Below are positions 7,848-9,424 of a stretch of DNA of 43,791 bases, piece after piece. The position numbers were made by a program, and so were the translations under genes. The DNA is taken from the IMG/VR virus record IMGVR_UViG_3300035128_000007, one strand, 5' to 3'. Source of the DNA: a virus. The first letter of the stretch is position 1. Each line of letters starts with the position of its first letter. The notes under the pieces are model-generated. The model was not told the origin of the DNA and made no database searches. It worked only from the letters and a program-made list of their open reading frames with translations.

Positions 7848-8012
7848 CTAGTAGCACATAGCAACGATTGCTCTCTTTAGTGAAGAAGGATACGCGTCCG
7901 CTTTCTCATCTGGTGACATATTTGCGGATAGTCCTTCAGCAAGTCTCTTTTCACGCTTCTCTTTCGCAACTCTATGAGCCTTCTCAAGCGCCGCACTCAT
8001 ATCTTTACTCAT
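7848..8012 (-). CDS. Small hypothetical protein (54 aa; 59 aa if started at ATG 8027), hand-called
   Basis: GGAGG, 4 nt, then ATG. MSKDMSAALEKAHRVAKEKREKRLAEGLSANMSPDEKADAYPSSLKRAIVAMCY. It shares its 17-nt initiation region with gene 9159..9362. Confidence 0.45.
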   Translation of the reverse strand: MSKDMSAALEKAHRVAKEKREKRLAEGLSANMSPDEKADAYPSSLKRAIVAMCY

Positions 8013-8033
8013 AAAACCTCCAACCATAGTTTC

Positions 8034-9038
8034 TCAAAGCGGACCTCCTAACATCACCCACGCTAGCGCCGCTTGGAGCGGGACTTGCCCATTACCGAGC
8101 GCCTTAATTCTGTCCACGCGAGAGGCCACGCCATTAGCCACTCGACCCACGTCGGATTCAGTTGCCCACCATTCGCCTTTACCCCTACCGCTGTCGCTAA
8201 TCCGTCCCCGCTTGACTTGCTCGCTCCTACGCGATTGTAATTGCCATGTATTGTTGGTGTCGGCCAGGTCCCTCTCGCCTTGGCTGCGTTTCTGCTGTTG
8301 CTTCCACCATTCAATCCGCTGGTGGTCGGTGTCGGGAACATCTTCACCTGCGCCGACAGTTTCGGCTCTCCGCGACTGTTGTACTTTCCGACTTTTCTCT
8401 CCACCGCATCGTCTGCGACTGGAGTCTGCCACATTGCCGCCACATAGTCTGGTAAATCGTTGCTGCGCTTTGGATTCCAATATCGTTTCGATTGTGCTCC
8501 CCGATGATCGCCGTCTCGAGCTTGTGGTGTCGGCACGCCTTGCAAGCAACCACCATCGTTTCCGCCTGTGCGGAGCGCCCACGTCGACAGCTCCCAGCAC
8601 GCCGTGAGATCCCATGTAGCCCAGCCCGGCCAGTTCCCCGACGATGTGGGCCACCCGCTCACCTCCGTTCCAGGAAACAAGCCCAGGGACGTTTTCGAGA
8701 AAGACCCATTTTGGTTGTATCGTCCGAATGGTATCGAGCGTGATTGGCCACATGTCGCGCTCATCTTCCGAGCCCTTTCGACTTCCGGCAAGGCTAAAAG
8801 GCTGACAAGGGAATCCTGCATGGATGCAATCCACTCGTCCCGCCCAATCGGATGCAGGGAACAGCCTGGCGTCTCCTTCGAACACGTGCAATCCAGGAAA
8901 CCATCCATCTTCTGCTTTCTCTCTGAGAACTTCACAACAGTAATGATCCCACTCTATGGCTACCATAGGCTGGTGACCAAGTATCAGATCCGCAAGCATG
9001 CCGCCTCCAGCTCCGGCAAACATGTGCATGGTTTTCAT
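8034..9038 (-). CDS. DNA (cytosine-5) methyltransferase (frame anomaly in the central region)
   Basis: Motif I MFAGAGGG, motif IV GFPCQPFS, motif VI FLENVPGL, APHRRKRWWLLA, and C-terminal RIKALGNGQVP. The central ~145 codons are Arg-rich and unlike a TRD. The TRD-like WPTP motifs are in the +1 frame (see findings). Confidence 0.8.
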   Translation of the reverse strand: MKTMHMFAGAGGGMLADLILGHQPMVAIEWDHYCCEVLREKAEDGWFPGLHVFEGDARLFPASDWAGRVDCIHAGFPCQPFSLAGSRKGSEDERDMWPITLDTIRTIQPKWVFLENVPGLVSWNGGERVAHIVGELAGLGYMGSHGVLGAVDVGAPHRRKRWWLLARRADTTSSRRRSSGSTIETILESKAQQRFTRLCGGNVADSSRRRCGGEKSRKVQQSRRAETVGAGEDVPDTDHQRIEWWKQQQKRSQGERDLADTNNTWQLQSRRSEQVKRGRISDSGRGKGEWWATESDVGRVANGVASRVDRIKALGNGQVPLQAALAWVMLGGPL

Positions 9039-9042
9039 TCAT

Positions 9043-9162
9043 CTAGTCATCGTCTCGAGGATTCAATTTATTCATGGCGATACTCCAGAATACTGCAAAC
9101 GCCATAGCCCCACTGATCCACACCATGAGCCAAAATACTAAGTGCTCGAGCCATTCAATCAT
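9043..9162 (-). CDS. Small single-TM peptide (39 aa), hand-called
   Basis: MIEWLEHLVFWLMVWISGAMAFAVFWSIAMNKLNPRDDD. The ATG overlaps the upstream stop (ATGA). It ends 5 nt before the C5-MTase ATG. Confidence 0.35.
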   Translation of the reverse strand: MIEWLEHLVFWLMVWISGAMAFAVFWSIAMNKLNPRDDD

Positions 9163-9362
9163 GCCTTTTCCTCTACTATTCCATATTCACTATAATCATG
9201 CTTGCAACGATACCGGGTATTATCTTGCCTATTAAGGTATTTTACCGATTTACTGCAATGTGGTTCAGCGCTGTCTATCGATAGATACCGTTTGTCATGT
9301 GGCACAAACTCATGCTTTTGTTCGTTCTTGTTTGCCCAGAGTAAAATGTTTGAATTTGCCAT
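9159..9362 (-). CDS. Hypothetical protein (67 aa from second ATG)
   Basis: Track ORF 9159..9377. I preferred ATG 9362 because GGAGG lies 4 nt upstream. MANSNILLWANKNEQKHEFVPHDKRYLSIDSAEPHCSK... The segment is AT-rich. Confidence 0.5.
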   Translation of the reverse strand: MANSNILLWANKNEQKHEFVPHDKRYLSIDSAEPHCSKSVKYLNRQDNTRYRCKHDYSEYGIVEEKA

Positions 9363-9424
9363 ATTTCCTCCAACCATAGTTTCATCTAGACCTTTGCTGG
9401 ACCCCTATGGGACCAAGCGGCTTC

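Follow-up and report, generated by a model that had tools for sequence, protein, structure and literature searches.

Two natural two-chain cytosine-5 methyltransferases have been described, M.EcoHK31I and M.AquI (PMC2836561, PMC3404938). In M.EcoHK31I, the alpha/beta enzyme of E. coli HK31 with the sequence YGGCCR (Lee, Kam and Shaw 1995, as described in PMC2836561 and PMC3404938), the beta chain is encoded wholly within the alpha gene in another reading frame; alpha holds motifs I-VIII as well as X, beta holds motif IX, activity requires both chains, the first 42 residues of beta are dispensable, and the predicted recognition domain has been placed on alpha (PMC2836561, PMC3404938). M.AquI (CYCGRG) is likewise a two-subunit enzyme (Karreman and de Waard 1990, as described in PMC3404938). 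Here we describe a methyltransferase gene in IMG/VR virus record IMGVR_UViG_3300035128_000007, a stretch of 43,791 nucleotides that was analysed as a whole and is called the window below. On its minus strand an open reading frame of 334 amino acids (frame A, 9038..8034) encloses a second one of 281 amino acids (frame B, 8908..8063, from the ATG at 8908-8906) that is read in the +1 frame. We judge it about 80% probable that these are two overlapping genes encoding the alpha and beta chains of a cytosine-5 methyltransferase, as in M.EcoHK31I, with an internal beta start that is specific to the window.

The resemblance to M.EcoHK31I, which can be compared by its description only, lies in the arrangement. 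Frame B is contained in frame A at an offset of +1, as it is in 79 of the 81 related loci over which layout was counted, and alpha would carry motifs I-VIII and X while beta carries motif IX. The first 42 residues of M.EcoHK31I beta are the dispensable ones, and stops have cost frame B its first ~43 codons in the window. There are differences as well. Beta of the window would be much longer (~281 amino acids) and includes conserved recognition modules, and in most relatives beta is co-extensive with alpha, starting 4 nucleotides from the alpha start. The beta chain of M.EcoHK31I is 176 amino acids long, a figure that does not come from the papers cited above. M.AquI is also a natural two-chain split, but in the window motif X stays on alpha.

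The two frames and their relatives

An earlier note on this DNA, made from its letters alone, had described two frames that divide the motifs of one enzyme between them, and both the frames and their motifs are exactly reproduced from the open reading frames and their translations. The catalytic N-terminal part of frame A (residues 1-166, 8541..9038, minus strand) contains motifs I, IV, VI and VIII, read as FAGAGG, PCQ, ENV and HRRKRWWLLA. An Arg/Ser/Gln-rich part of ~125 residues, approximately residues 167-289, follows; frame A then continues with EWWATESDVGRVANGVASRVDRIKALGNGQVPLQAALAWV and closes with motif X and C-terminal helices (8034..8101, minus strand; ALGNGQVPLQAALAWV...), the last of its recognizable motifs being RIKALGNGQVPLQAALAWV. 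Frame B is stop-free over 8935..8063 of the same strand, a run of 290 codons. Across the middle stretch (8174..8540, minus strand), where frame A encodes the linker that is only kept open, frame B encodes what appear to be target-recognition modules, VPTPQARD, WQTPVADD, FPTPTTSG and WPTPTIHGNYN in that order. They amount to three or four (W/F/V)PTP modules and are followed at 8102..8173 by a motif-IX-like box, GGQLNPTWVEWLMAWPLAWTEL; on identical bases frame A reads EWWATESDVGRVANGVASRVDRIK.

Frame A is a cytosine-5 methyltransferase by the hidden Markov model comparison that the earlier note had suggested: residues 1-264 match Pfam PF00145 (E 9e-39), and the frame scores 104.1 bits on TIGR00675, above the cutoff of 100.65. 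Residues 15-175 of M.HhaI align to frame A residues 4-171 (E 5e-17). In 67 frame-A sequences F7, G9, G11, P77, C78, E115, N116, H157, R159 and R161 are invariant, as are G315 and N316 of motif X (ALGNGQVP), where selection acts on frame A. Between motifs VIII and X, where a single-chain enzyme carries its recognition domain and motif IX, frame A is unconserved and shows no frame-A selection; it is frame B that holds the recognition modules and the motif-IX box. Frame B itself has no match in Pfam or NCBIfam, its profile has no sequence match to any solved structure, and no precomputed Pfam domain is recorded on the 120 frame-B relatives listed out of 2401. Those 2401 relatives, found in a large protein collection, are ~300 amino acids long, and the best of them covers 100% of the query. 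In PHROGs, the match to frame A is phrog_363 (E 4e-53) and that to frame B is phrog_1008 (E 6e-24); both are labelled 'DNA methyltransferase' and are kept as two separate, unlinked families, whereas in the window and the fetched loci proteins of the two types are two frames of one DNA.

The arrangement is not peculiar to this record. The sample comprised 80 viral loci with a frame-B alignment, and five A and B segments were mapped onto each locus; layout counts are given over 81 loci. In 80 of the 81 the catalytic N-terminal part lies in a frame f, the PTP and motif-IX part in f+1, and motif X again in f, and in 79 of the 81 frame A is an unbroken open reading frame between motifs I and X. In most loci frame B becomes open only a few bases from the A start, and its end is ~30 nucleotides or less from the A stop; among complete loci it is never closed later than ~64 codons into A. 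Used as a tblastn query, the middle part of frame B matched annotated methyltransferase genes, in their alternative frame, from Acinetobacter phage ABMM1 and from 48 records of Paenibacillus phages. The ABMM1 gene is open in both frames along its entire length (304 and 298 codons), with ATGs 4 nucleotides apart, and in Paenibacillus phage Bloom (L002) both frames are annotated 'DNA cytosine methyltransferase'. Two E. coli prophage genes (L086, L087) have the identical two-frame pattern; the NCBI pipeline names frame A only, and one copy is marked as a pseudogene with an internal stop. At the DNA level these prophage genes were found only through the zone 8102-8173, at 80-82% identity. Megablast of the gene and of both window halves against GenBank phages gave no match.

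Variant layouts tell how the same parts can be divided differently. Monomeric M.HhaI and gp40 of Rothia phage Spartoi have the same order of motifs, I-VIII, a PTP recognition part, an LNP..EWMMG.P.GW box (motif IX) and motif X; these single-frame enzymes differ in that one frame encodes one chain and the alternative frames are full of stops. The earlier note had expected that the N-terminal part of A, the middle of B and the C-terminal part of A would line up with a conventional enzyme, and Spartoi has exactly that order in one frame: its LNPEFSEWMMGLPKGWI aligns without gaps to B 259-275, and its N-terminal part and motif X align to A. The locus L063 (1296-2457) is an M.AquI-like split with motif X in frame B, since its frame A ends 26 codons after motif VIII and its frame B, one open reading frame of 390 codons, encodes the leader and three PTP modules along with the motif-IX box and motif X. 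In Gordonia phage CheeseTouch (L083, 301-1335) the +1 frame holds the PTP modules, but the annotated frame, frame 0, holds both the motif-IX box and motif X; the return to frame 0 is thus earlier than in the window, apparently the same idea with a different junction. Another locus (L006) has a single stop within the A linker.

One frame-B-type protein of 480 amino acids (P0014) carries an in-frame insertion of ~170 residues of the LAGLIDADG type (…LAYAAGLIDGEGSISI…). It is located in the leader, between the parts that overlap alpha motif VI and motif VIII, and may represent a homing endonuclease that has entered the shared DNA. The plus strand over the methyltransferase gene also contains long stop-free open reading frames, 8212-8607 (131 codons) and 8568-9107 (179 codons), which probably arise as by-products of composition and of the minus strand being doubly coding.

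Selection in the shared DNA

Rates of substitution were taken between related loci, from ungapped pairwise matches at 70-97% identity, and sorted by codon position; the first, second and third positions of frame A (A1, A2 and A3) are the third, first and second positions of frame B (B3, B1 and B2). In the N-terminal part the rates are 0.18 at A1, 0.10 at A2 and 0.39 at A3, the pattern of coding in frame A. The middle stretch has 0.33, 0.16 and 0.13 in the same order, the pattern of coding in frame B, and the C-terminal part (0.22, 0.07 and 0.20) is mixed. The wobble position is thus A3 in the N-terminal part and B3 in the middle; amino-acid selection changes frame. The consensus of the middle stretch, drawn from 67 frame-A and 96 frame-B sequences, is blank in A and conserved in B. 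At codon resolution, B-type selection extends from GG-LNP to GWT-(D/E)-L and A-type selection resumes from L-G-N-G onward, so that selection returns to frame A at ~8105 in the window. The switch points of ~8540 and ~8105 that the earlier note had read from the sequence alone agree with the sites where selection changes frame in related loci.

Each frame also remains open where the other is the one selected. The number of stops to be expected was obtained by shuffling synonymous codons, those of B in the middle and those of A in the N-terminal part. Frame A has no stop in the middle in any of 76 loci, against an expected average of 3.9 (5.0 for the window), and frame B has a mean of 1.4 stops in the N-terminal part against 3.7 expected, most of those observed being the TGA inside the A start, ATGA. 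Two full-length translations need the openness of both frames and a double frameshift does not, and for this reason we favor two chains.

Just upstream of motif X, the two frames are constrained simultaneously. This zone of ~23 codons (8102-8173, ~70 nucleotides) has third positions of frame B that are frozen, at 0.01-0.05, exactly where they serve as the first positions of A residues W290, W291, E294 and K311, whereas ordinary B third positions within the motif-IX box vary at 0.4-0.7. R299, G303 and R307 never vary among the 67 frame-A sequences, and W291, E294, P295 and G298 hardly do; among the 96 frame-B sequences N260, L267 and P271 are invariant. Because the A segment WW..EP.VGRV and the B box LNP.WVEWLMGWP.GWT are written in the same bases, both can exist only as parts of two chains.

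These observations bear directly on the possibility that a single polypeptide, A(1-166) joined to B(134-277) and A(311-334), is produced by two programmed frameshifts, +1 near 8540 and -1 near 8105. Such a chimera would explain why the three segments on which amino-acid selection acts follow the order of a single-frame enzyme, and in L063 a single +1 shift would yield the whole enzyme. It would, however, lose the A-selected residues W290, W291, E294, G298, R299, G303 and R307, encoded by bases that the B box uses too; it needs neither the openness of A in the middle nor that of B in the N-terminal part; and it leaves unexplained a conserved frame-B ATG beside the A start. In a frameshift gene the zero frame closes after the shift and the new frame is closed upstream of it, whereas here both are open nearly gene-wide, beyond what codon shuffles give. 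Nor do the junctions themselves look like sites of frameshifting. At the return junction, none of 68 loci has an X_XXY_YYZ heptamer in frame B between the LNP box and GNG (1 and 2 occurred in the control phases), which extends to the relatives what the earlier note had said of the window, and the first junction has no conserved sequence among aligned frame-A and frame-B relatives. We consider a double frameshift very unlikely. The earlier note had left the choice between recoding and a dual-coding segment open; the dual-coding half of that proposal is the one upheld, and recoding fits poorly with a frame A that is stop-free through the B-selected middle, with ~70 doubly constrained nucleotides, and with the want of slippery sites.

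Proposed assembly of the chains and target recognition

If two chains are produced, as the sequence of the locus suggests, we can propose how they would work together. Gene A would encode the large catalytic domain, in which a floppy linker of ~125 residues joins motifs I-VIII to the motif X helix. Gene B, one base downstream, would encode first a leader that owes its sequence to gene A, then the three or four (W/F/V)PTP modules, which would read the target sequence, and lastly the motif-IX box. The chains would then assemble with the motif-IX box of beta packed on motifs I, VIII and X of alpha, and packing of this kind would let beta supply the small (recognition) domain that alpha lacks. By analogy with M.EcoHK31I, both chains are probably needed for activity.

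Structure prediction is consistent with this division of labor. In the model of alpha alone, the predicted local distance difference test score (pLDDT) exceeds 90 for residues 1-170 and is below 50 for most of 171-299; it is higher in one helix, 238-254, and rises to 96 in the C-terminal helices. Alpha modelled together with beta residues 120-290 gives an interaction prediction score from aligned errors (ipSAE) of 0.88 (0.88, 0.88 and 0.86 in separate runs), compared with 0.48 for the best control; in our calibration 58 of 80 solved complexes attained this mark, as did 2 of 110 mismatched pairs. The runs share at least 39% of their contacts. Beta residues 246-279, the motif-IX box, touch alpha residues 10-15, 33-41, 153-157 and 290-321, that is, motifs I, VIII and X. 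The conserved A and B segments of the doubly constrained zone both fall in this predicted interface. Motif IX of monomeric M.HhaI sits about where the box of beta is placed on alpha. The complex model supports binding of alpha to beta, and the likeness of the pair to solved monomeric cytosine-5 methyltransferases may account for part of its high ipSAE.

A second alternative accepts that both proteins are made and supposes that beta is an independent overprinted protein, for example a regulator or a DNA-binding factor, while alpha works alone with a degenerate recognition loop. In its favor, frame B is without a sequence match in Pfam, NCBIfam or the solved structures, and alpha has a G-V-A/P stretch of its own that is vaguely like motif IX. 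Against this, the B box aligns gap-free to motif IX of a single-frame enzyme and occupies the expected place between the recognition part and motif X, and the model puts it against motifs I, VIII and X. The alpha linker, moreover, is not under frame-A selection, so that alpha has no recognition domain of its own, and the characterised precedent, M.EcoHK31I, requires both chains (PMC2836561). An independent beta strikes us as highly improbable. The remaining explanation, raised in the earlier note, that two sequencing or assembly errors or a pair of compensating indels left an inactive, scrambled gene, draws on nothing but the look of this single sequence and has a negligible chance of being correct. 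It is ruled out by the frame layout, which 80 of 81 loci keep although their samples and hosts are unrelated (they come from metagenomic phages, E. coli prophages, Acinetobacter and Paenibacillus, and include finished genomes of phages and of E. coli). Against it, too, purifying selection acts in the matching frame of each segment.

Several observations sit less comfortably with an alpha/beta enzyme. Modelled alone, beta folds poorly (mean pLDDT 59; predicted template modelling score 0.31), and its PTP part is uncertain in the complex too, where the pLDDT of the partner is 45-51. The beta leader, ~125 residues, gives no indication of amino-acid selection: the four-fold sites of frame A evolve at 0.44 over codons 61-165, where the leader overlaps them, and at 0.38 over codons 1-60. 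The leader is nevertheless open in every locus, and beta never starts directly before the recognition part; what is maintained in the leader is its openness and not a protein sequence. Ahead of ATG 8908 there is a weak Shine-Dalgarno sequence, no more than a purine-rich GAGAGAAAG. Finally, the loci share descent, and the layout counts are not fully independent.

The PTP modules invite a further speculation, that they are independent, shuffled target-recognition units, which would make beta a swappable specificity subunit and the enzyme possibly multispecific. The window has three or four modules and its relatives have from one to three or more by a simple motif count, with types that differ in order. 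The methyltransferases of Bacillus phages SPR and phi3T have tandem recognition domains and are multispecific. We think this extension rather unlikely as it stands. If it is true, the recognition domain of an M.EcoHK31I-type enzyme would be on beta, and not on alpha as the literature has it, and the twin start codons 4 nucleotides apart would set the ratio of alpha to beta.

Initiation, flanking sequences and wider significance

Where the two chains would start differs among relatives in an orderly way. The pattern NTGAATGAG, with a frame-B ATG 4 nucleotides past the A start, is seen in 51 of 74 loci; this B ATG is fixed, while the start codon of A differs among loci (ATG, GTG, TTG, or a few codons upstream). 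In several relatives nearer to the window the B ATG instead lies 5 nucleotides before the A ATG (ATGACATGC). In the window and in L005, which is closely related to it, stops interrupt the first ~43 B codons, and both have an ATG at exactly +130 from the A start. Beta of the window would therefore be ~281 amino acids long and lie wholly inside alpha, beginning at ATG 8908 with MDGFLDCTC...

Ahead of gene A, in the region 9036-9086, the minus strand contains an open reading frame of 10 codons that begins at ATG 9075 (MNKLNPRDDD), has GGAG 7 nucleotides ahead of it and ends with TAG at 9045-9043. ATGAATG directly follows this TAG, and its second ATG (9038) is the alpha start. As alpha is without a clear Shine-Dalgarno sequence of its own, its translation may be reached by reinitiation from the short upstream frame.

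The flanks of the gene suggest how it came to be where it is. Two copies of a 24-nucleotide direct repeat, 88% identical and both on the minus strand, bracket a cassette made up of the methyltransferase and of a 72-amino-acid open reading frame (9377..9159) that precedes it. The upstream copy (9360..9383) is at the start of the 72-amino-acid frame, and the downstream copy (8010..8033) is an initiation region that reads GAAACTATGGTTGGAGG...TATG on the coding strand. The cassette has a G+C content of 55-59%, compared with 42-50% in the flanks. Its composition and borders suggest that the cassette is a module exchanged into place through recombination between initiation regions that are repeated.

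To our knowledge, textbooks rarely mention a same-strand overlap of ~1 kb whose products are two functional chains of a single enzyme. In the literature, M.EcoHK31I is the only characterised same-strand overlap of two chains of one enzyme that we found, and a search for descriptions of this phage family as overlapping genes returned only the papers on M.EcoHK31I and M.AquI. The gene table of a Paenibacillus phage genomics paper contains two cytosine methyltransferase genes, with no comment there on an overlap. The design is nevertheless no curiosity, with its layout in 80 of 81 fetched phage and prophage loci and 2401 relatives of frame B. It is poorly annotated: in the E. coli prophage copies examined the NCBI pipeline names frame A only, and metagenome gene callers often report frame B only, as 'hypothetical'. 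Since annotation usually reports one of the two frames, beta is overlooked when phage methylation, anti-restriction and host range are read from genomes. For the study of how bases can be shared between genes, the locus offers a clean natural example, in which each chain has a stop-free 'passenger' stretch and a zone of 70 nucleotides is tuned for both frames.

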